Assembly (NCBI RefSeq): GCF_902784195.1
Contig: NZ_CACZTX010000014.1
Span: 1-30,971 of the forward strand
Direction of reading: 5' to 3'
Length of the DNA stretch: 30,971 nt
Source: an uncultured Methanobrevibacter sp.
Lineage (GTDB): Archaea > Methanobacteriota > Methanobacteria > Methanobacteriales > Methanobacteriaceae
Part shown: positions 2,171 to 30,971 of the stretch, in pieces
How positions within the stretch are numbered: position 1 is the first letter of the stretch
How the letters are laid out: each line of letters starts with the position of its first letter
Notes under the pieces: generated by a model
The model's database searches: none
The model's input: the letters and a program-made list of their open reading frames with translations, nothing else
Told to the model about the DNA's origin: nothing
Made by a program: the position numbers and the translations under genes

Positions 2171-2815
2171 TTACAAATGATTAAACAATGTCCAAATTTC
2201 AGGATACTTTTCAGCTATTGCAGCATCTATCAAGTCTGATGCTTCACTGCTTATGCTGAATTCAGGTTCGGTTTTTCTCAAGTACCTTAGTACAGCTGCT
2301 GATTTTGCTGACCATAAAGTGATTCTTGGGTTTTTTTCCACAGTTTCGATGACTTCATCTACTAGTTTCTCTTCTTTTTCTGAGAGAAGACTACCAACTT
2401 CTTTTATATCATCAGAAGCTTCAATTATTTCACTACTTGCATCAGTTTCTTCATTTAAATTAACTGTAGAATCAATATTTTCTACACTTTTTTCTGAACT
2501 GATTTTTTCTTCAGTTTTTATCTCATCATCTTCCACTTTTTCATCGTCATTGAAGAAAACATTTGTGTACTCGGATGAGTCTTTAGGTTTTTCATCTTCA
2601 ACATCTGCTGATTTTTCTAAAACTTGAAGTTCATCTTCACCATCAAATTCCTCTTCAACTTCTTCCACCAGTTCTTCAAATGTTTTTGACTCATCTTCGG
2701 ATTCCCTTAATAAATCTTCAAGACTAATGCCCTCTTCGACTTCTGTCTCTTCGATCTTTGGAATCAATGAATCCAATCCTCTTCCTAATCCTGTATTCTT
2801 TTCCTTTTTAGCCAT
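2171..2815 (-). CDS. ParA partner protein: ParB-type N-terminal peptide + long acidic linker + small C-terminal RHH-like domain (SegB/ParB-adaptor-like)
   Basis: 214-aa ORF, 89 bp downstream of and co-oriented with the ParA gene. The N-terminus MAKKEKNTGLGRGLDSLIPK closely resembles the ParA-stimulating N-terminal peptide of bacterial ParB/Spo0J (GLGRGLxALLP). Residues ~25-160 are E/D/S-rich low complexity. The last ~55 aa (NPRITLWSAKSAAVLRYLRKTEPEFSISSEASDLIDAAIAEKYPEIW) have a strand-helix-helix pattern. No ParB HTH or GERRxR box is visible. Confidence 0.5.
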   Translation of the reverse strand: MAKKEKNTGLGRGLDSLIPKIEETEVEEGISLEDLLRESEDESKTFEELVEEVEEEFDGEDELQVLEKSADVEDEKPKDSSEYTNVFFNDDEKVEDDEIKTEEKISSEKSVENIDSTVNLNEETDASSEIIEASDDIKEVGSLLSEKEEKLVDEVIETVEKNPRITLWSAKSAAVLRYLRKTEPEFSISSEASDLIDAAIAEKYPEIWTLFNHL

Positions 2816-2904
2816 TTTACCAAACCCTTTCGTGTTTAAAATTTAAAATTTAATTATAATTCATAATCATCAAAATCATTGTTCTAAATCAATATATCCT
2901 CTCT

Positions 2905-3690
2905 TTATTTTCCATCTCTTTCCAATATTTCCTTAGCAAGTTTCAAGTAAGCTATTGCTCCTTTACTTTCTGGATCATAGACAATACATGGTTTTCCATA
3001 ACTAGGAGCTTCTGCCAAACGTATGTTCCTTGGAATTACTGTATTGAATACATATTCCTTGTCCTTGAAGTATTTTTTTAGTTCGGAATAGACTTCCCTT
3101 CCTAACCGGGTTCTTGCATCATACAGTGTTAGAAGTATTCCCTTGATAGGTGTTGGGCTTCTTAATCTAGTTTCCACAAGCTTGATTGTATTCATTAAAT
3201 CCGCTAATCCTTCAAGTGCAAAGTATTCCGCTTGAATTGGTATCAATACGCTGTCTGCTGCTATCAATGAATTTATTGTAATTATTCCTAGAGATGGTGG
3301 CAGGTCTATAATAATGTAATCAAAAATGCCTTTAATCGGTTCAAGTAAGTTTTTCAATGCTATATGATAGTTAGCTTCCTTGCTTAATTCCACTTCGATA
3401 CCACTTAAGTCGATATTGCTTGGTAGTATGAATAGGTTTTCAATTTTAGTAGGAATTGTTGCTTTTTGAACGCTGCATTCGTTTACTAAAGCAGTGTATA
3501 CTGTCTTCTTGATTTCTGTTTTATTTATCCCAAAACTTGTGGTAGCATTAGCTTGAGGATCCATGTCAACTACAAGCACTGCCTTTCCCATTGCAGCAAG
3601 TGATGTTGCCAAATTAACTACTGTTGTAGTCTTACCACATCCGCCTTTTTGATTCATTACGGCACTTAGAAGTTTTTTCTTAGCACTTAT
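2905..3690 (-). CDS. parA: ParA/Soj-family (SegA-like) partition ATPase
   Basis: Deviant Walker A NQKGGCGKTT, DMDPQ, Walker B IIIDLPP, and C-terminal RLAEAPSYGKPCIVYDPESKGAIAYLKLAKEI as in Soj/ParA. The ORF-track ATG (3657) lies one residue before the P-loop and would delete strand beta1. The frame stays open upstream (ISAKKKLLSAV), so I extend to ATA at 3690-3688, just after a GTGAC SD-like element. The family call is firm; the start is uncertain. Confidence 0.85.
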   Translation of the reverse strand: MSAKKKLLSAVMNQKGGCGKTTTVVNLATSLAAMGKAVLVVDMDPQANATTSFGINKTEIKKTVYTALVNECSVQKATIPTKIENLFILPSNIDLSGIEVELSKEANYHIALKNLLEPIKGIFDYIIIDLPPSLGIITINSLIAADSVLIPIQAEYFALEGLADLMNTIKLVETRLRSPTPIKGILLTLYDARTRLGREVYSELKKYFKDKEYVFNTVIPRNIRLAEAPSYGKPCIVYDPESKGAIAYLKLAKEILERDGK

Positions 3691-3710
3691 TAGTCACAAC
3701 CTCATAGTTA

Positions 3711-3975
3711 TTACTTATATATTATAATTTATAAGTTATACTATATAAGTTTTAAGTTATATCTTATTACTTTTACTTTATAATTTATCATTTATAAGTT
3801 TTTACTTTTAACTTATTTCTTATAATTTTATAAGTTATTAGTTATAACTTATAACTTATAACTAAAAATTATCATAAGAAATAAGAAAAATATAAGAAAA
3901 AATACCTAAAAATAGATGAAAATATTAGAAAAATTCATTAAAAAGAGAGAGAAGTTATCACTTATAAGTGATAAC
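3711..3975. repeat. array of ATAAGTTAT/ATAACTTAT-core repeats with (TTATAAC)x3 and a perfect 22-bp palindrome; candidate centromere/operator upstream of parA
   Basis: TATAAGTT cores occur at 3730-3740, 3745-3752, 3793-3800 and 3829-3838, with TTAAGTTATA at 3752-3761. The inverse ACTTATA occurs at 3713-3719 and AACTTAT at 3810-3816. Three perfect tandem TTATAAC heptamers lie at 3842-3862. GTTATCACTTATAAGTGATAAC at 3954-3975 is its own reverse complement. Confidence 0.5.
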
Positions 3976-4054
3976 AAGAGTTTTTGTTTGTATAAAATCA
4001 GTATTCTATGTAAAAAACAATAAAAAATAAGAAAAAAATAATGGATAAGGAAAT

Positions 4055-8830: not shown

Positions 8831-10366
8831 TTAGATATTTTTCTCAATAGCCAATAATCTATTGATTGAGTTGATGACTGCTACCACACTTGAAATGATA
8901 ACGTCCTCTCTAGTAGCTCTTCCTGTTGCCCTATGGCCATCATTGTCTGAAATCACTACAAAAGTTTCGGCCAATGCATCAGTACCACCGCTTACCGCTT
9001 CAAGTCTGTACTCTTCAAGGTTGATTTCAACAGTTTCATTAACGAGTGATTTGATTGCACCAATAGCCGCATCAACTGGACCCACTCCAATTTGAGAGGT
9101 TTCAATAACCTTTCCTTCGATTGAAAGTCTTACGGTTGCTGTTGCAGATACTGACTCTCCAGTCATTACGCTCATTCCAAGCAATTTGATGTACTCTTTT
9201 CCACTGGTACTCAATTCAGTGATCGCAATGGATTTCAAATCCTCATCTGTAATGCATTTTCCTTTATCCCCAAGTGTCTTTACCTGATTGTAAATGTTTT
9301 CGAATTGCTTAGGACTTACTTCTATATTGAACTCTTCCAATTTGGACTTTATTCCAGCATGGCCGGTATGCTTTCCAAGGGCAATTCTTCTTTTGTGCCC
9401 TACAAGTTCAGGTGGAATCGGTTCATAGGTAGAGCTGTTTTTCAATATTCCATCCACATGGATACCGGATTCATGTGCGAAAGCATTTTCTCCAACAATT
9501 GGTTTTGTAGGAGGCATCTTTATACCTGTAATTGATCCGATGAAATTGGATGTGTCATAAAGTTTGGTTGTGTCTACACCTATGTTTGCACCATAAGCTA
9601 TCTTCAAGCTGACAACAAGTTCCTCTAAAGAGGTGTTTCCAGCTCTCTCACCGATACCGTTTATTGTACAATGGGCCTGGTTTGCCCCTTCTTCAATACC
9701 GATGATTGAATTTGATACAGCAAGTCCAAAGTCATTATGGAAATGAAGACTAATCGGAACATTGATTTTCTTTCTCAAGATTCTTATTAAATCTCTTGTA
9801 GTGGATGGGACTAAAATTCCAACAGTGTCTGGTACATTTATCACATCTGCTCCTGCACCTTCAACGCCTTTGTAGAATTCTATTAGATAGTTAAGTTCTG
9901 TCCTTGTTGCATCTTCAGCTGAAAATTCAACAGTGAGGCCATGATCTTTAGCATATTCAACCGCTTCAATGGATTGATTCAATATTTCCTCTTTTGATTT
10001 TTTCAGCTTATAGTCTCTATGCAGTGGGGAAGTTCCAATAAACAAATGTGCGTATGACAAGTCAGAGTCAATAACTGCATCTATATCCTTTTTCAACACT
10101 CTTGCAAGACCACATAAATTAGACTTGAATCCTAATTCAACCATTCTTTTTGCAGCCTTTCTTTCACCTTCTGATACAGTTGGAAAACCCATTTCAATGG
10201 TGTCCACTCCAAGTTCATCCAGCTTTTGAGCTATCTTTATCTTTTCATCAACTGTTAAAGCGATGCCGGGAGCCTGTTCCCCATCTCTTAAGGTTGTATC
10301 GAAAATTCTGATCTTATCAGGGAGTTTCAATTCTTCCTTTACATCTTCAATGTTTATTGCATTCAT
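8831..10366 (-). CDS. 2-isopropylmalate synthase / (R)-citramalate synthase family (LeuA/CimA)
   Basis: 511-aa ORF. Motifs IFDTTLRDGEQ, LHFHNDFGLAVSN and HESGIH are present, plus a C-terminal LeuA-type regulatory domain. LeuA and CimA cannot be separated by eye. Confidence 0.85.
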   Translation of the reverse strand: MNAINIEDVKEELKLPDKIRIFDTTLRDGEQAPGIALTVDEKIKIAQKLDELGVDTIEMGFPTVSEGERKAAKRMVELGFKSNLCGLARVLKKDIDAVIDSDLSYAHLFIGTSPLHRDYKLKKSKEEILNQSIEAVEYAKDHGLTVEFSAEDATRTELNYLIEFYKGVEGAGADVINVPDTVGILVPSTTRDLIRILRKKINVPISLHFHNDFGLAVSNSIIGIEEGANQAHCTINGIGERAGNTSLEELVVSLKIAYGANIGVDTTKLYDTSNFIGSITGIKMPPTKPIVGENAFAHESGIHVDGILKNSSTYEPIPPELVGHKRRIALGKHTGHAGIKSKLEEFNIEVSPKQFENIYNQVKTLGDKGKCITDEDLKSIAITELSTSGKEYIKLLGMSVMTGESVSATATVRLSIEGKVIETSQIGVGPVDAAIGAIKSLVNETVEINLEEYRLEAVSGGTDALAETFVVISDNDGHRATGRATREDVIISSVVAVINSINRLLAIEKNI

Positions 10367-13387: not shown

Positions 13388-13913
13388 ATTTATTTTTTCT
13401 TTAAATTTTTTTAATTTTTTTTGATTTCTACCGAATTTAATTTTTCAATTCTTTAAACATTTTATCATATTTTTTAATTTTTCTATTTTTTTATCTCCTC
13501 GGACTTTTTTTAAAATTTATTTTTGTATAATGTATACATTTTTTCCATCATTTTTCCATCATTTTTTTACAATATACAAAATTTTTTATTTTTTGAGAAA
13601 ATTTTTCTCATAAAAAAGTATTACTTCAAGAATCTTAAGGATTTTTTCCAAAAAAATTTTTAAAAATCAAAATCTATTTAAATCTATTATTTTATTCTAA
13701 AACTTGAGTTTTTTTAGTTATTTTATTAAAAAACTATAACGATTATTTATTTTTTTAAAATAATTATTTTAAACTATATTTTCTACCACTTTTTTCAGTG
13801 CTGTTTATAACTTTTTGTAGATACAACGTTAACTCAATGATATTACATGCTATATTTTTGTACATTTATGTATATGAAATCCATCTTTTTTTAAGTTTTT
13901 TCAAAAACCAATA

Positions 13914-13927
13914 ATCCTGGCCAGGAT
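13914..13927. repeat. perfect 14-bp GC-rich palindrome ATCCTGGCCAGGAT in an AT-rich spacer
   Basis: Read directly; the sequence is its own reverse complement. It lies between the inverted copies CTCAATGATATTAC (13833-13846) and CTCAAATGATATTAAC (reverse complement of 13953-13968). Confidence 0.6.
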
Positions 13928-14004
13928 CTTCATATTTTTTTAAAAATAATATGTTAATATCATTTGAGATTTTAAGAATTTTTTGAAAAATTTATTTCAA
14001 ATTT

Positions 14005-14030
14005 TGTAACTCAATTTTTACACTTGAAAC
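14005..14030 (+). repeat. composite box TGTAACTCAAT-TTTT-ACACTTGAAAC (ORB-like core ACAnTTGAAA)
   Basis: Read directly. TTTACACTTGAAA (14017-14029) is repeated perfectly in inverted orientation at 15295-15307. The composite order recurs at 15219-15242 on the minus strand. Confidence 0.55.
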
Positions 14031-14136
14031 GATACTAGTTATTTTTTCTCAATTTTTTCAAATTTTTAAATCATCTTAAAAAAGTGATAACTCAAATTAT
14101 CTCAGCTAAATCATCTATGTAATATCATTATGACTC

Positions 14137-14173
14137 CTCAAATTTTTTTTCAATTTTTTTTCAATTTTTTGAG
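14137..14173. repeat. phased oligo-T tracts CTCAAA-T8-CAA-T8-CAA-T6-GAG (11-12 bp period)
   Basis: Read directly. The tracts lie between oppositely oriented GTWAACTCAWT-type boxes (14087-14097 plus orientation, 14169-14177 minus orientation). Confidence 0.6.
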
Positions 14174-14303
14174 TTACAAATTTGATTTTTTTTATAGATT
14201 TTTAAATTAAGTTTATATGCAATGAGTTAACATATATAATAATGTTAATAATTTTTTATATAATTTAATTATTTTATTCATATAAAAAATTTTTAGAATT
14301 TCA

Positions 14304-14316
14304 ATGATAATATCAT
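14304..14316. promoter_or_regulatory. 13-bp palindrome ATGATA-A-TATCAT, 25 bp upstream of the orphan gene start; candidate operator
   Basis: Perfect 6-bp arms with a 1-nt spacer. A second copy, ATGATA-T-TATCAT, lies at 15445-15457. Confidence 0.45.
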
Positions 14317-14340
14317 TTTTTTCATTACGAAGGTATTTTT

Positions 14341-15036
14341 ATGTTAGAAAAGGAAGTCAAACAATATAAGAGAGGAAACAGTTTCACTTACCGTATCGAC
14401 CTATCAAAAAAAGATAATTTTGAAGGTGGAGAGAAGGTAATGATTCTTAGGTTAAGTGAATATGAATCTTATCTGCAGGAGATTGATGATCTCAAGGCTA
14501 AAATTGATGATAATAAAAATACCATTTCAGATTTGAAGCAATCACGCAGTGAAGCGGATTCTTCCATAAATGAAATTATGGAACAAAGGAATCAGGAAAT
14601 TTCAGAAAAGAATAAGGAAATCATGGACCTGGTTGAAGAAAACAAATCTGCCATTGCAAAATGCTATGAAATTATTGATGAAAAAGATCAGCTTATCAAA
14701 CAGGCTAATGAAGAGATTAGGCTTGAAAGGGCAAAGTCTGATTTAGCTCAGCAAAAGGCTGAAGAAAATCTCCTTGAAGAGAGAAAAAGACATGATGAAC
14801 TTGTCTTGGAAAAAGACAAGGAATTGCATAATGTCAACCAGCAGCTTCAAGATAGCCTTAAGGAAATCGCTTATAAGGATCAATTGTTAACTGCAGATAG
14901 ACTTTTAATTGACAGATATAAAAACAGAAGTTTCATTGATCGTTTATTAAACAGGCAACCTGATGACAGTGACTTGCAAATAGAGAGCAAGCCAAAGGAA
15001 ACCTATGTTTTGGAAGCTGAAAAAACAGATGAATAA
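14341..15036 (+). CDS. orphan coiled-coil protein with a short basic N-terminal domain (possibly AbrB/MazE-like swapped hairpin)
   Basis: 231-aa ORF with GAAGGT SD-like sequence upstream. Residues ~45-185 are heptad-like and E/K/Q/L-rich (coiled coil). The N-terminus KQYKRGNSFTYRIDLSKKDNFEGGEKVMIL loosely resembles the AbrB/SpoVT pattern (xGNSxxxxIP...GDxV). It is flanked by 953 and 764 bp of non-coding DNA. Confidence 0.6.
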   Translation: MLEKEVKQYKRGNSFTYRIDLSKKDNFEGGEKVMILRLSEYESYLQEIDDLKAKIDDNKNTISDLKQSRSEADSSINEIMEQRNQEISEKNKEIMDLVEENKSAIAKCYEIIDEKDQLIKQANEEIRLERAKSDLAQQKAEENLLEERKRHDELVLEKDKELHNVNQQLQDSLKEIAYKDQLLTADRLLIDRYKNRSFIDRLLNRQPDDSDLQIESKPKETYVLEAEKTDE

Positions 15037-15218
15037 GTTTTCATCTTCTATTTTTTATTCTATTTTTACATTTTTCTAATATTTTATTCTAATTTCTCTA
15101 TTTTTTCATTCTAATAATTGTAATGTCATTTTATTTTTGAGGATATGCAATTCATATGCATTTTCAATTCATTGAGTTGTATTTTTCGATTAATTTTTAT
15201 TGTAACTCTTAGACATAT

Positions 15219-15242
15219 ATTTCAACTGTATAATGAGTTAAC
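15219..15242 (-). repeat. composite box (minus strand) GTTAACTCAT-TAT-ACAGTTGAAAT
   Basis: The reverse complement of 15219-15242 was read directly. It has the same order and nearly the same spacing as 14005-14030. Confidence 0.55.
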
Positions 15243-15293
15243 CTGTTATTATCATTTTTTGCCAATTTTAGGGCCAGAAATTCCTTGACGTAA

Positions 15294-15307
15294 ATTTCAA
15301 GTGTAAA
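15294..15307 (-). repeat. ORB-like box (minus strand) TTTACACTTGAAAT
   Basis: The reverse complement of ATTTCAAGTGTAAA was read directly. It shares 13 bp of identity with 14017-14029 in inverted orientation. A weaker copy, ATAACATTTGAAAA, lies at 15331-15344 (minus). Confidence 0.55.
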
Positions 15308-15444
15308 TTTTTTTAATATTTTTTTAAGATTTTTCAAATGTTATTATCAAAACATAATCATGTTAATTTATTTTCATTATCATTTCAAATCTTTTGTAAT
15401 ATCATTTATTTTAAGGATTTTTCTCGATTTTTTTCTCTAAAAAA

Positions 15445-15457
15445 ATGATATTATCAT
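15445..15457. repeat. 13-bp palindrome ATGATA-T-TATCAT (second copy)
   Basis: Read directly; it pairs with 14304-14316. Confidence 0.45.
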
Positions 15458-15800
15458 AAAATTTTCTTAAATTTTCTAAAATTTTTCAAGATTTTCATCA
15501 ATTTTTAATGATTTTTTGTATTACTTAAAGATTTTTTATCTATTGGAAAATTTGTTTTATATTTTTCAAATTATTCTTCTTAAAAAATCAGTTTTTCTCA
15601 ATATCATGTAAATTTTTCATCTTCTCAAAATATTTTCCTACATACTTTTTCTCTTTTTCATTGGAAAATTTTTTGCATGTTTTAATATGAAATTCTATGA
15701 TTATTTAAAAAATCCTTAAAACCCTCTTCAAGCCTTTTAAAAAACTTATTATAATAGTTTAAACAAAATCAAAAATAATGCTTTTATAAAAGGGGTTTTT

Positions 15801-16946
15801 ATGAACTATAATTTTAAAAATGGAAACTTTGATCTATTTCATCCGCTGATTGTTGTTGTCATGACAATCCTATTTCTAATCATAGCTATGCCTATGTGGT
15901 ATTTTTATCGTGAATTGCCTACCCCTAATTTGGATTTGTATCTTTATATTGGTTTAGGGCTTTTGTTCTTTATTTTTGGTATTTGTCTATCTAACTGCAT
16001 ATTAAAAAAGAATTTTAAAATCGATACAGTTTTATCCTTTAAAAAAATTTTAAGTGCTGAAAAATTATCTTTATTTGATAATTATTCTAAAAATGAATTG
16101 ATTCTTGTAGGGCTTGTATCATTAGGTATTCTATTGCAGATTATAAACATAGCATTATTAGGAGGCATACCTCTTTTCTCAGCAACATTAAAGGCAAAGG
16201 CAGCAACTAAAATTTGGCTCATATCTTACATAATTTTCTTGCCTTCCATCAATGTCTTGCTTGCAAAATACAATAGAAAATCACATTATCTATTGTTGTT
16301 AATTGGTTTAGTATTGTTTGCTCTTACTGGATACAGAACCACTCCTATTGCAATCATGCTATCTGCACTCATTACCTTGTATTACACAAGGGATGTTGAT
16401 GTGAAATACATAATTTTAGCTATTTTGGCTATTGCAGTTGTGCTTTTGGCTGTGGGATTCATAGCAGTTCAAGCCATCAGCTGGCAACATTGGTCATTGA
16501 ATCCAATTGAATTGGTCTCTTATAGGGCAGCATTTACATTGAATGTGCTTTCCAAGGCAATTGAAAATCAATTCACTACAATGGGAAATCTATTCTACAC
16601 AACATTGACAGGATTCTTTACACATTCAGATGCAAGAGTCCTAGTAGGCCAAGCAACAATCGGCAGAGTTCATTCAATAACCTCTACAATATTCGGTCCT
16701 GCACTACTTGATTTCGGTATTGTGGGAATGCTTATTCAAATGTTTTTAATTGGCCTTATCCTAAAGACCTTACATAGCATACAAAATCATAGTAAAAGCA
16801 TCTTTACAGCATTTTATGGAATTTTACTTGCACAAACAATCATCTGGATAGAAACAGGCCCAACTGATGTTGTGGTTTGGCTATTCTATTTAATTGGCAT
16901 TTTCCTCATCATCCATTTTTTAAGGGGTGCTAATCATGAAATCTAA
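15801..16946 (+). CDS. polytopic membrane protein, oligosaccharide repeat-unit polymerase (Wzy)-like
   Basis: 381-aa ORF with roughly 10-12 hydrophobic helices and a larger loop near residues 70-100. Size and topology resemble archaeal repeat-unit polymerases. The family call is tentative. Confidence 0.45.
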   Translation: MNYNFKNGNFDLFHPLIVVVMTILFLIIAMPMWYFYRELPTPNLDLYLYIGLGLLFFIFGICLSNCILKKNFKIDTVLSFKKILSAEKLSLFDNYSKNELILVGLVSLGILLQIINIALLGGIPLFSATLKAKAATKIWLISYIIFLPSINVLLAKYNRKSHYLLLLIGLVLFALTGYRTTPIAIMLSALITLYYTRDVDVKYIILAILAIAVVLLAVGFIAVQAISWQHWSLNPIELVSYRAAFTLNVLSKAIENQFTTMGNLFYTTLTGFFTHSDARVLVGQATIGRVHSITSTIFGPALLDFGIVGMLIQMFLIGLILKTLHSIQNHSKSIFTAFYGILLAQTIIWIETGPTDVVVWLFYLIGIFLIIHFLRGANHEI

Positions 16947-21269: not shown

Positions 21270-21408
21270 TGAATCACTCACTGATTAAAGTTCTAAATAA
21301 TTATTTCCTAAAAATATTTCCTAAAAGTATTTCCAATAAGGGCATAATATAGTAACAATTTATAGAAAAATTTTAAACTATATTTAAATTAAAATAACGA
21401 TTAATTAT

Positions 21409-21609
21409 TTACTCATCTGGCGCATTTCTCATAATTTTAATTGCATCTGGACCACATTTCATTGCACATAATGTACAAACATGACAATAATCTAAATTTG
21501 ATACATGTGCAACAGTATCAATAGTCCAAATATATCCTCCTTTAGGACAAATCTCTTTACAATTTCCACATGCAGTGCATTTGTCCTCATCAACTATAAT
21601 CTTTAAAAT
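21409..21609 (-). CDS. 2x[4Fe-4S] ferredoxin (66 aa), not in the ORF track
   Basis: Own translation: (I/M)LKIIVDEDKCTACGNCKEICPKGGYIWTIDTVAHVSNLDYCHVCTLCAMKCGPDAIKIMRNAPDE, with two CxxCxxCxxxCP clusters. The frame is open from 21645 but has no ATG/GTG/TTG before the first cluster. ATT at 21609-21607 sits in GTGATATTATT, the same 10-mer that precedes the ATG of mtd and trpB2. Confidence 0.7.
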   Translation of the reverse strand: MLKIIVDEDKCTACGNCKEICPKGGYIWTIDTVAHVSNLDYCHVCTLCAMKCGPDAIKIMRNAPDE

Positions 21610-21716
21610 AATATCACCATGAATAAATCTGTAAATAATCTTATTTTATTTAAAATATATAAAATTATGGCTATCTGTGAAAAAATATCTTATTTTCATT
21701 TATTCAAATCAATTAC

Positions 21717-28900: not shown

Positions 28901-30556
28901 CCTTCAGATGTAAAAGTCATAAATAGTACTTTCTTTGAAAACCAAGCATGGTCTTACCTATTAAACATCACCCCAGAAAACAACACTTATCTTAACGAAG
29001 GTCAAGAATTCAATATAAGTGTTAGCCACCAAGGTGGAGACAATATTATAAATGCAATCTACAATGATGAAGATTGTGAAACAATTTTAAACAATGTAAC
29101 TTATCCATTCATGACATGGGATGGACAGTTAATAAACAAAACAACCCCAACTCAAGATATTCGACCTGTAATGGGTGCGGAAAACAGTGATTATGGTAAT
29201 TTATTATACCAAGATGATTTCGAAAATAATCAAATCATTAATGTTCTAGTAAAAGATAAAAATGGAAATGTAGTTGTCGACAAAAATGGAACAACCTTAA
29301 GTTTCGAGGGTTTGAAAACAGATATTTTCGGTGATATTTTCATTGTAAAAGATGGAGAAATCATTAGATGCATACCTGTAGCCGGTTTAGAACCTGGAAG
29401 GTATTATGTAGAAGCTACTCACCCAGAAGACAGATATTATTTAGAAATTTATAATTTCACTGTCCTTAGAGTCGGTCCTACTGATTTAGAGATCAATAAA
29501 ACAGTAAGCAATGCTAGTTGTGATGTTGATGATATTGTCGACTGGAATGTCACTACCGGAAACATTGGACCAATTGATGCTGAAAATGTTACTGTAAGAG
29601 ATACCTTACCTGAAGGTCTTGATTTACTCGATTTAACTTTCAACTTCTTTGATTCAATTAACGGAAACTGGTGTACTGGTAAACTCAATTTAACTACTAA
29701 CACTTTAACTTATGGAGTTTACAATGCAACTGCAGGCACCTGGACTTATAATGAAGCAAGTTATGATGGAACTGGCACATGGAATATTGTCATTCCAGAT
29801 ATTGATGGAAATGTTGATATCTTAAAGCCAGTTACAATTAGCTTAACCTTAAATAAGGGTTCAGACACTACAGTTACTTTATTTGTAAGCGACTTATTAG
29901 AGCAATCAAGTGTTGTCATGAACTTAGTTACCAATGTAACTAAAGAAGGTGAATTTACCAATTTTGCTAATGTAACTACCGACACTCCAGAAACTAATTA
30001 CACTAACAATAATGCTAGCAACACTACAACAACAGTTGTTGAACTCACCAATCTTACTGTGATTAAGGTTTGGGATGATGAGAATAACCAAGATGGTGTC
30101 AGACCTGTCAATGTTACCATTGAGTTATTTGCAGATGGTGTAAAGATTAATGAGACTGTTTTAAATGAAGGTAATAATTGGAAATATACTTTCACTGATT
30201 TACCTGTTAAGAATAATGGTCAAGTTATAAATTACACTGTTAATGAGACTGTCATTAATAATTACACAACAGTAATTAGTAATGAGACTGCTTATAACTG
30301 GACTGTACTTAACATTCACGTTCCTGAATTGACTGAGGTCAATGTGACTAAGGTTTGGGATGATGAGAATAACCAAGATGGTGTCAGACCTCCTAGTGTG
30401 ACTGTTATTTTGTATGCTGACGGCACAGAAATCAACCGTACTGTTTTGTCTGAGGAGAACAATTGGAAATGGACTTTCCCAGACTTAGATGTCTATAAAG
30501 ACGGTGTTTTAATCGTTTACACTGTTAATGAACAATTGGAAATGGACTTTCCCTGA
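25904..30556 (+). CDS. secreted adhesin-like protein: signal peptide, acidic S/D-rich segment, long right-handed beta-helix (Pmp/PbH1-type GGAI repeats), DUF11-like domain, CnaB-type repeats; frame broken at 30531-30556
   Basis: ORF track 25940-30556 (1,538 aa). It has dozens of NxTFxxNxAxxGGAI-type repeats, the DUF11-like LEINKTVSN...NVTVRDTLPEGL, and CnaB-like units KVWDDENNQDGVRP...YTVNE. I extend the 5' end to ATC 25904, which lies 7 nt after AGGAGG and gives MNTKIINSILIILMLFCLISLVGIASA-ED, a complete signal peptide. The start is uncertain. Confidence 0.85.
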   Translation: MNTKIINSILIILMLFCLISLVGIASAEDISDNEIISYDDTIDISTENSNLQEISDLSSASDSNDISNEISNADDSADDTSDDVITSSSSKEVLGANKLYASYDLSGSTLADIQAYLDSGSVVAGDTIYLGNQTWNSGNWGPYSGGPVQVNIPNLIISGGTSGSPNDFATISAGSKIFQLNAPGITLKNIAFTNTAQGPCCAVNIQSSDSTITNCVFDHCYNQNGAAIYGSSSSSNTKIENCNFTNNEAIWSGKGTVYYEGSDLTITGSIFDANIGGAVYSEGDTEITDCIFEDHTTDKIIVDLHGTAKVTNSNFTNNNVTGWNVGALNIGGENSLIENCNFINNSAQGYGGAVGVNGINSQIKDSTFTNNHATSGGAIHDSASGLTVSNCAFENNTANSGGGAIDLSYDNAVVSDCNFTNNSANSQGGAIYIGWDCNRQTITNCDFTDNDAGSQGGAIYADSEGNKVTYSNFTGNSAPNGGAIQLGGDSDDFDLEHVIFENNHAYVYQGEWGPVGGHGGAINADNHNEINPDIVDVTFINNTADIAGGAVKHHSNWTFTDCEFINNSANPDNNPSYVSDEISFGGGALWCCDGISNLINTDFIGNNATFGGAIRGAVNAKDCLVENNTAFNGNGGGIDMTIDARLFENETFLTAVNVKDCTFINNSAQGDYQPSEEAKGGKAQGGAIHVYRVDGMVLDNITCIDNSAYRGGAIDLYVMNFTTLSNSTLLNNTATLGGGIAVVGNHTRFDNVTMTENAAVVNGSQDGQGGGIWVIGEDCRIFNSTIDHNIAEGQGGGAWINGSDVQLNNTVLDSNVAEAEMLAAGGGLFVEGDGCIFNNNTITRNNCSSDSGTGGGICVTGENCIFTNNTIDYNFATYGGGVSVDGANTNFTHNNMSYNRAETGGGFFVQGEDLYVEDLYAFNNTAENGGAAATLLADGTIFKNSTFENNTAIGDLSEDRGEGGAIHISASSNVLVQADFINNTACNGSAIYVDNFWGLPSDVKVINSTFFENQAWSYLLNITPENNTYLNEGQEFNISVSHQGGDNIINAIYNDEDCETILNNVTYPFMTWDGQLINKTTPTQDIRPVMGAENSDYGNLLYQDDFENNQIINVLVKDKNGNVVVDKNGTTLSFEGLKTDIFGDIFIVKDGEIIRCIPVAGLEPGRYYVEATHPEDRYYLEIYNFTVLRVGPTDLEINKTVSNASCDVDDIVDWNVTTGNIGPIDAENVTVRDTLPEGLDLLDLTFNFFDSINGNWCTGKLNLTTNTLTYGVYNATAGTWTYNEASYDGTGTWNIVIPDIDGNVDILKPVTISLTLNKGSDTTVTLFVSDLLEQSSVVMNLVTNVTKEGEFTNFANVTTDTPETNYTNNNASNTTTTVVELTNLTVIKVWDDENNQDGVRPVNVTIELFADGVKINETVLNEGNNWKYTFTDLPVKNNGQVINYTVNETVINNYTTVISNETAYNWTVLNIHVPELTEVNVTKVWDDENNQDGVRPPSVTVILYADGTEINRTVLSEENNWKWTFPDLDVYKDGVLIVYTVNEQLEMDFP

Positions 30557-30971
30557 ATTGGACAAATACAAGAACGGTGAATTAATCGTTTATACTGTTA
30601 ATGAGACTGCTGTTGCTAATTATACTGTTAACATTACTCAGGTGGGCAATGATTTCACCTTGAACAACACTCATGTTCCTGAATTGACTGAAGTTAACGT
30701 GACCAAGATTTGGGACGATAACAATGATCAAGATGGTGTCAGACCTCCTAGTGTGACTGTTATCTTGTATGCTGACGGCACTGAGATCAACCGTACTGTT
30801 TTGTCTGAGGAGAACAATTGGAAATGGACTTTCCCTGAATTGGACAAATACAACAACGGAATCTTGATTGTCTACACTGTTAATGAGACTGCTGTTGCTA
30901 ATTATACTGTTAACATTACTCAGGTGGGCAATGATTTCACCTTGAACAACACTCACGTTCCTGAATTGACT
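30035..30971 (+). repeat. tandem CnaB-type coding repeats: units of 285, 355 (282+73) and 282 bp, with the next unit cut by the window end
   Basis: The anchors GTT(GTT/CCT)GAA(CTC/TTG)AC lie at 30035, 30320, 30675 and 30957. Units 2 and 3 share long near-identical DNA stretches. Confidence 0.85.
30531..30971 (+). CDS. continuation of the adhesin CnaB repeats in the +1 frame relative to 25904-30556 (open to window end)
   Basis: Own translation from 30531: NNWKWTFPELDKYKNGELIVYTVNETAVANYTVNITQVGNDFTLNNTHVPELTEVNVTKIWDDNNDQDGVRPPSVTVILYADGTEINRTVLSEENNWKWTFPELDKYNNGILIVYTVNETAVANYT... There is no stop codon before 30971. It is not in the ORF track, and the listed minus-strand ORF 30582-30956 is its mirror image. 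Confidence 0.8.

Follow-up and report, generated by a model that had tools for sequence, protein, structure and literature searches.

We analysed a stretch of DNA of 30,971 nucleotides from an uncultured Methanobrevibacter sp. (RefSeq assembly GCF_902784195.1, contig NZ_CACZTX010000014.1; referred to as the window in the following), whose nearest public relatives are rumen metagenome-assembled genomes (MAGs), M. olleyae and M. ruminantium. Its genes include Mtd, the Ni-sirohydrochlorin a,c-diamide synthase CfbB, HisB and other methanogen-typical genes. This study concerns an island between CfbB on one side and an O-antigen-polymerase-like gene (15801-16946) on the other, in which an open reading frame (ORF) of 231 amino acids (aa; 14341-15036, + strand) sits between two long non-coding spacers, 13388-14340 (953 bp, GC 0.167) and 15037-15800 (764 bp, GC 0.190). 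The island is a lineage-specific cassette, and its flanks are conserved, rigidly spaced arrays that comprise three bona fide origin recognition boxes (ORBs) and two private box families. Our preferred reading, held tentatively, is that the cassette binds the replication initiator outside the origin in a regulatory or architectural role.

To our knowledge, replication control in archaea is understood almost entirely via origins that lie next to initiator genes, and cell-cycle control in the M. ruminantium/olleyae group is essentially unstudied. This group includes major rumen methane producers. If true, our reading would provide a concrete, testable case of an initiator that acts away from its origin, be it at a regulator, at a titration or remodelling site, or at a cryptic origin. 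Usable results are the consensus architecture of the canonical Methanobrevibacter origin and a new protein family linked to mobile elements. We also wish to add a caution: origin predictors that count ORBs per spacer will call the island an origin.

Composition of the island

All intergenic DNA of the window is AT-rich (GC 0.10-0.28), and the flanks of the island reach 81-83% AT. Neither flank contains an ORF of at least 60 aa, and the remaining spacers measure 12-569 bp, with the leader of an adhesin gene (807 bp) as the exception. An earlier note on this DNA had delimited the two non-coding stretches exactly; it had also set the adhesin leader apart and given roughly 50-400 bp for the other spacers. 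Hidden small genes were considered for the island spacers and rejected, as the ORFs of 25-47 aa found there are of low complexity. Neither Rfam (gathering thresholds) nor a tRNA scan gave a match in the whole window, and searches for att-like direct repeats at the island ends yielded only low-complexity AT-rich matches. Likewise, the cumulative GC skew has no clear extremum at 13.4-15.8 kb, which is a weak test in a window that, at 31 kb, is too short for it.

Three families of short motifs recur on both sides of the gene. We compared their counts in the island spacers (1,717 bp) with those in all other spacers of the window (5,219 bp) and in 500 dinucleotide shuffles of the island. Exact copies of ACANTTGAAA number four in the island and one in the other spacers (shuffle mean 0.11), the heptad TAACTCA is found six times and not at all, respectively (shuffle mean 0.23), and the palindrome ATGATAWTATCAT is present in five copies with up to two mismatches (shuffle mean 0.43) or three with up to one (shuffle mean 0.02), with none in the other spacers at either threshold. 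For each of these motifs, the island count was reached in 0 of 500 shuffles; the enrichment is not a composition effect. The six TAACTCA boxes and five full palindromes, together with additional half-sites, are distributed over both sides of the gene. The earlier note had described this recurrence and the lack of clustering in other spacers, both of which these counts bear out, but two of its units had to be redrawn: its ACAnTTGAAA box is part of a 13-mer, TTACACTTGAAAT, plus a 3' extension, and the conserved core of its GTWAACTCAWT box is the heptad TAACTC(A).

The ORB motif published for Methanobacteriaceae is TT[TA]CACTTGAAAT[GTA]T[CT][CG]TC (Ori-Finder 2 paper, PMC4164010). Its 13-bp core, TT[TA]CACTTGAAAT, is matched at three positions of the island, namely once upstream of the gene (14018, + strand, one mismatch) and twice downstream of it (15219 and 15294, - strand, two and no mismatches), and we refer to the latter two as d1 and d2. 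The guanine of TTGAAA, reported to be unchanging in archaeal ORBs, is present in each of the three boxes and in all ORB copies listed for the loci compared below.

Conservation of the arrays

The comparison covered 21 loci from species-representative genomes as well as those of M. ruminantium M1 and M. olleyae. All of them share the same order, in which rSAM and CfbB are followed by a long spacer, the gene, a second long spacer, and then the O-antigen-polymerase-like gene or Mtd. In 16 island-bearing loci, 46 ORBs with at most one mismatch fall into 34 kb of island, compared with 10 in 271 kb of flanking DNA, and the same three ORB positions and strands recur throughout (in M. acididurans, d1 is below the threshold). 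While the flanking proteins of about 25 loci have diverged to ~50-60% identity, the boxes themselves, together with their order, strand and spacing, are maintained. Since discrete invariant boxes are separated by variable sequence of fixed length, we regard the island as a set of protein-binding-site arrays, and the idea of a dense protein-binding locus rather than inert spacer, put forward in the earlier note, is thereby upheld.

Two side observations concern ORB-like boxes elsewhere. In M. olleyae YLM1 (our locus L024, 17665-17760; also L025, 12163-12257), the ORB-like 13-mers TTTCACTTGAAAT and TTATACTTGAAAT lie 82 bp apart, 7.7 kb downstream of the island, where they occupy the spacer that separates two very large genes for surface proteins; ORB pairs outside the origin may thus not be unique to the island. 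In the window itself, a LeuA/CimA-like coding sequence includes the ORB-like 13-mer CCACACTTGAAAT (8884-8896), which is also seen in several loci and for which a conserved string of codons, not a binding site, is the simplest explanation.

Upstream of the gene, the whole spacer varies between ~565 and 1,480 bp across species. Its distal, T-rich part (13388-13802) likewise varies in length and is conserved in close relatives only (8-locus alignment). It is followed by a set order of elements: the distal TAACTCAATGATATTACATG block, a palindrome, TAACTCA, the ORB, TAACTCA, a palindrome, the TATA-like TTTATATG and a reverse TAACTCA. The distal block (13803-13872, + strand) shows invariant columns in the same alignment and precedes the upstream ORB by 176-204 bp in each of 20 loci; it includes GTTAACTCAAT (13828-13838), AATGATATTACATG (13836-13849), whose TTACA resembles half an ORB, and the palindrome TACATTTATGTA (13861-13872). 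Next comes ATGTTAATATCAT (13951-13963, + strand), a palindrome of the ATGATAWTATCAT family situated 57-70 bp 5' of the ORB, and then a composite element (14006-14030, + strand), in which GTAACTCAAT, with TAACTCA at 14007-14013, precedes the upstream ORB TTACACTTGAAAC (14018-14030). This ORB is found on the + strand 264-480 bp 5' of the start codon (323 bp in the window) in all 22 loci with an upstream flank. Past it, at 14088-14128 (+ strand), lie GATAACTCAAAT and the palindrome half-site ATGTAATATCAT (14117-14128); the TAACTCA of the former (14088-14094) is invariant in 11 of 11 aligned sequences and is located 50-70 bp beyond the ORB. A further heptad lies on the - strand at 14170-14176.

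Judging from the archaeal TATA consensus, 14209-14241 (+ strand) is a putative promoter of the 231-aa gene. This block, TtTATATgcAATGAgTTATcATATATAATA, has a mean column identity of 0.85 across the aligned loci and contains the TATA-like TTTATATG (14212-14219), and a TAACTCA on the - strand (14223-14229) sits between the latter and the expected start site. The suggestion of a heavily regulated promoter in the earlier note is to this extent supported. In the leader, an exact palindrome, ATGATAATATCAT (14304-14316, + strand), lies 25 bp before the ATG and recurs in close relatives only, with the Shine-Dalgarno-like GAAGGT (14329-14334, + strand) located 3' of it.

Downstream of the stop codon, a variable T-rich spacer (15037-15200, + strand) with oligo-T runs, probably terminators, leads to a rigid module (15201-15460, - strand). 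This module comprises GTAACTC (15202-15208), ORB d1 ATACAGTTGAAAT (15219-15231, - strand), TAACTCA (15234-15240, - strand), a palindrome (15243-15255), ORB d2 TTACACTTGAAAT (15294-15306, - strand), a weak ORB (15331-15343, - strand), a second palindrome (15338-15350), half-palindromes near 15377 and 15399, and an exact palindrome (15445-15457). In an alignment of 12 diverse loci, the first ~225 of 308 columns are almost free of gaps, with a mean column identity of 68% over all 308. Relative to d2, GTAACTC lies at -92, d1 at -75, TAACTCA at -60 and the palindromes at -51, +44/45 and +140 to +152. The distance between d1 and d2 is exactly 75 bp in 21 of 22 loci, at protein identities of 51-97%; the exception is M. 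acididurans, where d1 falls under the match threshold. By contrast, the distance from the stop codon to the module ranges from 107 to 472 bp across species and amounts to 2,119 bp in M. ruminantium, owing to an insertion sequence (IS) with a DDE_Tnp_1 transposase between mru_2149, the homolog of the gene in this species, and the downstream ORB module (M1 locus L022, 11003-12511). Even there, the module is unharmed and the 75-bp ORB spacing is kept. RNA structure was considered as the cause of this conservation and rejected, since RNAalifold predicts a fold of just -1.08 kcal/mol for the module, with pairs only between two palindrome boxes. The AT-rich spacer before the O-antigen-polymerase-like gene (15461-15800, + strand) shows little conservation and presumably holds the promoter of that gene.

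These data bear on the possibility that the island has no specific function, that is, that it is an AT-rich artefact or harbors unannotated small genes or non-coding RNAs. All spacers of the window are indeed AT-rich, and Tandem Repeats Finder (TRF) and other repeat finders report many low-complexity matches in it. Yet the motif counts exceed those of the shuffles and of the other spacers alike, the register of the boxes is maintained throughout the genus, and the searches for RNA families, tRNAs, a consensus RNA fold and small genes yielded nothing beyond low-complexity ORFs. We therefore consider this explanation largely refuted and very improbable.

The cassette and its protein

The gene at the center of the island had been described as an orphan in the earlier note, which it is not: a protein search returned 78 homologs, among which the one of M. 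olleyae shows 86% identity and mru_2149 of M. ruminantium 72%. There is virtually no variation in the first 31 residues, and the C-terminal motif RLLIxRYKNRSFIDRLLNR is conserved as well, whereas the coiled coil between them varies. In the AlphaFold model, residues 38-194 form one continuous helix (157 residues, pLDDT >90), preceded by an N-terminal β-hairpin of low confidence (pLDDT <50). Searches with the protein and with its N-terminus against Pfam, PHROGs and PDB gave no meaningful match, and a literature search for mru_2149 found nothing. An AbrB/MazE-like N-terminus was tried as a candidate but gained no support, with hhalign assigning a probability of 0.6% over 17 columns in a comparison with E. 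coli MazE.

An exhaustive profile search yielded only 41 related cluster representatives. The distant relatives measure 140-275 aa and retain both terminal motifs as well as the coiled coil. In three of four remote contexts examined, they adjoin tyrosine integrases, and the contigs are crowded with short ORFs that lack annotation. The closest remote homolog, P0083, is encoded on a mobile-element-like contig (L026, 146-8564) together with an integrase, an RHH protein and a large protein with an MTBMA_p00010_2nd domain, which takes its name from a plasmid protein of Methanothermobacter. This contig also has one TTTGTAACTCTT and a few sites that resemble the palindrome, which is suggestive but does not exceed background. 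Relatives were found neither in the phage and plasmid collections (tblastn) nor in the viral contigs scanned, and they are encoded in none of the 120 metagenomic ORB-pair loci described below. In the window, no integrase, transposase or flanking att repeats were found.

The cassette is present at the same junction in all loci from L001 to L025, but empty sites exist in M. cuticularis (L150) and in a Methanobacteriaceae MAG (L152). There, CfbB is directly followed by the O-antigen-polymerase-like gene, and the spacers of 375 and 494 bp contain no ORBs, palindromes or TAACTCA boxes. Since these genomes keep the neighborhood without the cassette, the cassette is accessory. Thus, the comparison of the syntenic locus proposed in the earlier note revealed conservation in about 25 Methanobrevibacter loci along with absence from these two. 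Given the integrase-linked relatives, the cassette probably derives from a mobile element.

The island can also be compared with partition systems. Like KfrA, ParR-parC and the omega-heptad systems, it has heptad and inverted-heptad iterons around and within the promoter of its own gene and relatives on mobile elements, and it shares with KfrA the long coiled coil of the protein. Unlike in these systems, however, the 231-aa protein has no detectable homology to their proteins and no detectable DNA-binding fold, no partition NTPase is adjacent, and the island contains initiator boxes, which these systems are not known to have. The island may be conceived of as a centromere-like or nucleoid-organising site, where a coiled-coil binder of the KfrA/ParR/omega type coats the arrays and tethers the region for segregation, with the ORBs as auxiliary elements. 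The iterated 7-bp and inverted-heptad boxes that flank and overlap the protein's own promoter, the single 157-residue helix with its conserved termini, the link of the family to mobile elements and the ~95 bp between the downstream palindromes at -51 and +44/45 all fit this idea. Still, we find it rather unlikely: there is no adjoining partner NTPase, the Pfam and PDB searches revealed no DNA-binding fold in the protein, and the ORBs, the best-conserved elements, are left unexplained.

The earlier note had pointed to a ParA cassette 10 kb away, but nothing ties it to the island. A ParA/MinD-type ATPase gene (2905-3657, - strand) is followed by a 214-aa gene without Pfam match (2171-2815, - strand), which gives it a partner gene of its own, and the spacer upstream of ParA carries about 22 TTATAAC heptad iterons (3706-3863); similar arrays are found in L015 (5981-6075) and L017 (5890-5987). 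The region (2171-4054) resembles a partition cassette in its own right, complete with a centromere.

Comparison with canonical origins

When metagenome contigs were searched for ORBs paired in direct orientation, 120 loci were obtained, many of which show ORB(-) clusters followed by ORB(+) clusters. About 40 metagenomic clusters and five cdc6-adjacent origins of the Methanobrevibacter type (oriC) are arranged in this way. The order ORB(-)/DNA unwinding element (DUE)/ORB(+) has been described as typical of archaea. The five canonical oriC examples (L092 8026-8669, L141 8193-8827, L127 3689-4323, L054 1909-2544 and L124 1948-2825) are spacers of 635-880 bp between cdc6 and a DUF2299 gene, which is followed by cobD and cbiG; the Cdc6 proteins have 385-391 aa and are confirmed by Pfam (Cdc6_lid, Cdc6_C). 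In the recurrent AT-rich design, a spacer of 635 bp accommodates three or four ORB(-) and, across ~100 bp of A-rich gap, two ORB(+), giving ~5-6 ORBs in total. An ORB pair in head-to-head orientation almost overlaps, another ORB(+) follows 48 bp further, and a variant box of the TTCCAGTG type lies near the start of cdc6. TAACTCA is absent from all five spacers, and so are ATGATAWTATCAT palindromes, save one match with two mismatches in one of the five.

The canonical ORBs carry a 3' extension, AAAT-nnAYCTCT or nnATGTCT (…AAATacAccTCT or ccATGTCTtg). Two of the three island ORBs have the canonical extension in the form nnAYGTCT, namely d1 (…AAATatATGTCTaag; …AAATATATGTCTAAG) and d2 (…AAATttACGTCaag; …AAATTTACGTC), which agree with the canonical boxes over ~20 bp, extension included. 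The tail of the upstream ORB, gGTACTt, is conserved as well, but differs from the canonical one. The conserved 3' extension is reportedly needed for stable binding of Cdc6-1.

Could the island then be an ordinary complex promoter, in which not Orc1/Cdc6 but some transcription factor recognises the ORB-like boxes, their match to the origin box having arisen by coincidence or convergence? The deviating tail of the upstream ORB, the ORB-like pair in at least one other M. olleyae spacer and the presence of further palindromes of the transcription-factor type speak for it. The match of d1 and d2 to canonical ORBs over ~20 bp, however, argues otherwise, and a module that lies downstream of the gene, at a variable distance from its stop codon, and that survives an IS insertion is hard to square with simple promoter control. 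We regard this explanation as quite improbable.

The order of the island ORBs, ORB(+)-gene-ORB(-)ORB(-), is the reverse of the canonical ORB(-)/DUE/ORB(+). Whereas the 5' TTACAC ends of canonical clusters point toward the AT-rich gap, it is the 3' extensions that face inward in the island, across 1.2 kb that include the gene, and no opposing ORB was found in either outer flank. Likewise, no Cdc6/Orc1 or WhiP domain is encoded in the window or within ±10 kb of the ~25 island-bearing loci; a search aimed at the Cdc6 of the island-bearing clade gave matches from the M. thaueri/gottschalkii clade only. In M. ruminantium M1, the gene is located at about 2.837 Mb of a 2.937-Mb genome. The M1 record begins at cdc6-1, where oriC was placed by skew and by homology to the origin of M. 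thermautotrophicus (PMC2812497), and the island is therefore ~100 kb from cdc6-1. This paper-based value for M1 is the only firm distance to oriC.

Because of the reversed ORB polarity, the lack of cdc6 within 10 kb, the 100 kb to cdc6-1 and the empty sites, we do not call the island the origin; it is probably not the main chromosomal one. That an IS may separate the gene from the downstream module without eroding the latter also counts against such a role. Of the replication origin proposed in the earlier note, what stands is the link to origins, established by the published Methanobacteriaceae ORB, but not the identity as the chromosomal one, in view of polarity, cdc6 distance and empty sites.

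The main rival to our reading is a second replication origin, whether active, conditional or dormant, at which Cdc6 bound to the ORBs would load MCM into the AT-rich flanks while the cassette protein and its boxes control firing. Three full-length ORBs are a substantial set compared with only ~5-6 in a canonical Methanobrevibacter-type oriC, both flanks stand out by a length that is consistently great across loci and by 81-83% AT, and about 33% of predicted archaeal origins are non-canonical. Origins distant from initiator genes exist in other archaea. Moreover, a circularised cassette would read ORB(-)ORB(-)/AT-rich/ORB(+), as might be expected of a mini-replicon that integrated through its unwinding region. 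We nevertheless consider a second origin unlikely, since all canonical clusters recovered have the opposite ORB polarity, an opposing ORB is lacking on both sides, congeners of otherwise identical synteny lack the island, the window contains no skew switch (a weak test), and skew profiles of Methanobrevibacter are described as single-origin and bacterial-like (PMC12999951; PMC2812497).

A model for the island

We tentatively favor the reading of the island as a lineage-specific cassette that binds the initiator outside the origin and serves a regulatory or architectural purpose, which we hold to be the most likely explanation, at slightly less than even odds. Cdc6-1 would bind one ORB ~190 bp upstream of the gene's promoter as well as the two downstream ORBs, whose spacing of 75 bp corresponds to about seven helical turns and would place them on one face of the helix. 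The TAACTCA heptads and the ATGATAWTATCAT palindromes would be bound by a second factor, for which the coiled-coil protein of the cassette, acting as a dimer or oligomer, is the simplest candidate. Boxes of these two families sit on either side of ORB d1, directly next to the upstream ORB and within the core promoter, and the heptads flank two of the ORBs. The gene would thereby regulate itself, and the initiator would become part of a fixed nucleoprotein complex. In this way, the locus may tie expression of the gene to the occupancy of its boxes by the initiator, or it may hold or modulate the initiator, and it would not be the place where the chromosome fires. We place the initiator-binding site outside the origin because the 3' sides of the ORBs face inward across a gene and not outward across an unwinding gap.

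In Methanothermobacter thermautotrophicus, Cdc6-1 is said to bind a cluster of 13-bp mini-ORBs beside cdc6-1. Like such an oriC of the Methanobacteriales, the island has the TTACACTTGAAAT box, the nnAYGTCT extension at d1 and d2, an AT-rich setting and several boxes at fixed spacing. Unlike it, the polarity is reversed around a gene, the 3-4 boxes are 75 bp apart rather than ~48 bp, there is no adjacent cdc6, some congeners lack the island, and two extra box families are present. ORBs on both sides of a gene are also known from the Thermococcales, where one ORB cluster lies inside dp1, cdc6 is located between two ORB clusters, and Cdc6 binds an ORB cluster that is not at the unwinding site (Matsunaga et al., 2007; PMC1904270). 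There, however, clusters next to oriC enclose the gene of the initiator itself, whereas the gene enclosed here encodes an unrelated coiled-coil protein and lies 100 kb from cdc6-1.

For a possible mode of working, datA and DARS1/DARS2 of E. coli may serve as an analogy; these are clusters of DnaA boxes outside oriC, with IHF and Fis sites, that titrate or recycle the initiator. The island could resemble them as a small, rigid cluster of initiator boxes with sites for accessory proteins, 100 kb from the origin (in M1). In contrast to datA and DARS, which are not known to enclose a dedicated gene, it surrounds a gene of its own, is archaeal, would engage another initiator and has no sequence relationship to them. 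A further proposal, which we consider unlikely, is that the island is an archaeal counterpart of datA/DARS that binds Orc1/Cdc6 via its three phased ORBs and, together with the coiled-coil factor, controls how available or active the initiator is, or else a conditional second origin derived from a mini-replicon that depended on the host initiator and had its origin split on integration.

Several points weigh against the reading that we prefer. Polarity alone cannot exclude firing, because about a third of predicted archaeal origins (~33%) deviate from ORB(-)/DUE/ORB(+). The canonical oriC examples stem from the M. thaueri/gottschalkii clade, and for the island-bearing clade we rely on the M1 genome paper. 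The integrase-linked contexts of the homologs have no ORBs, and the pairing of ORBs with the gene is therefore specific to this chromosomal lineage. Finally, no DNA-binding fold was found for the protein in Pfam, PDB or PHROG, and an AbrB/MazE/SpoVT domain gained no Pfam match for any of 18 family N-termini.

Other features of the window

Two further observations lie outside the island. The spacer 21282-21716 (- strand, ~21395-21575) is 79% identical over ~248 bp to distant relatives and contains a hidden 2×[4Fe-4S] ferredoxin-like ORF (…DEDKCTACGNCKEICP…CHVCTLCAMKCGP…), which is missing from the ORF list because it has no ATG, GTG or TTG start; M. cuticularis has an 86-aa Fer4 gene at the matching position. 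At 30457-30604, a 73-bp tandem duplication (two copies, 82% matches) extends from the 3' end of an adhesin-like ORF of 1,538 aa to the start of the next frame.

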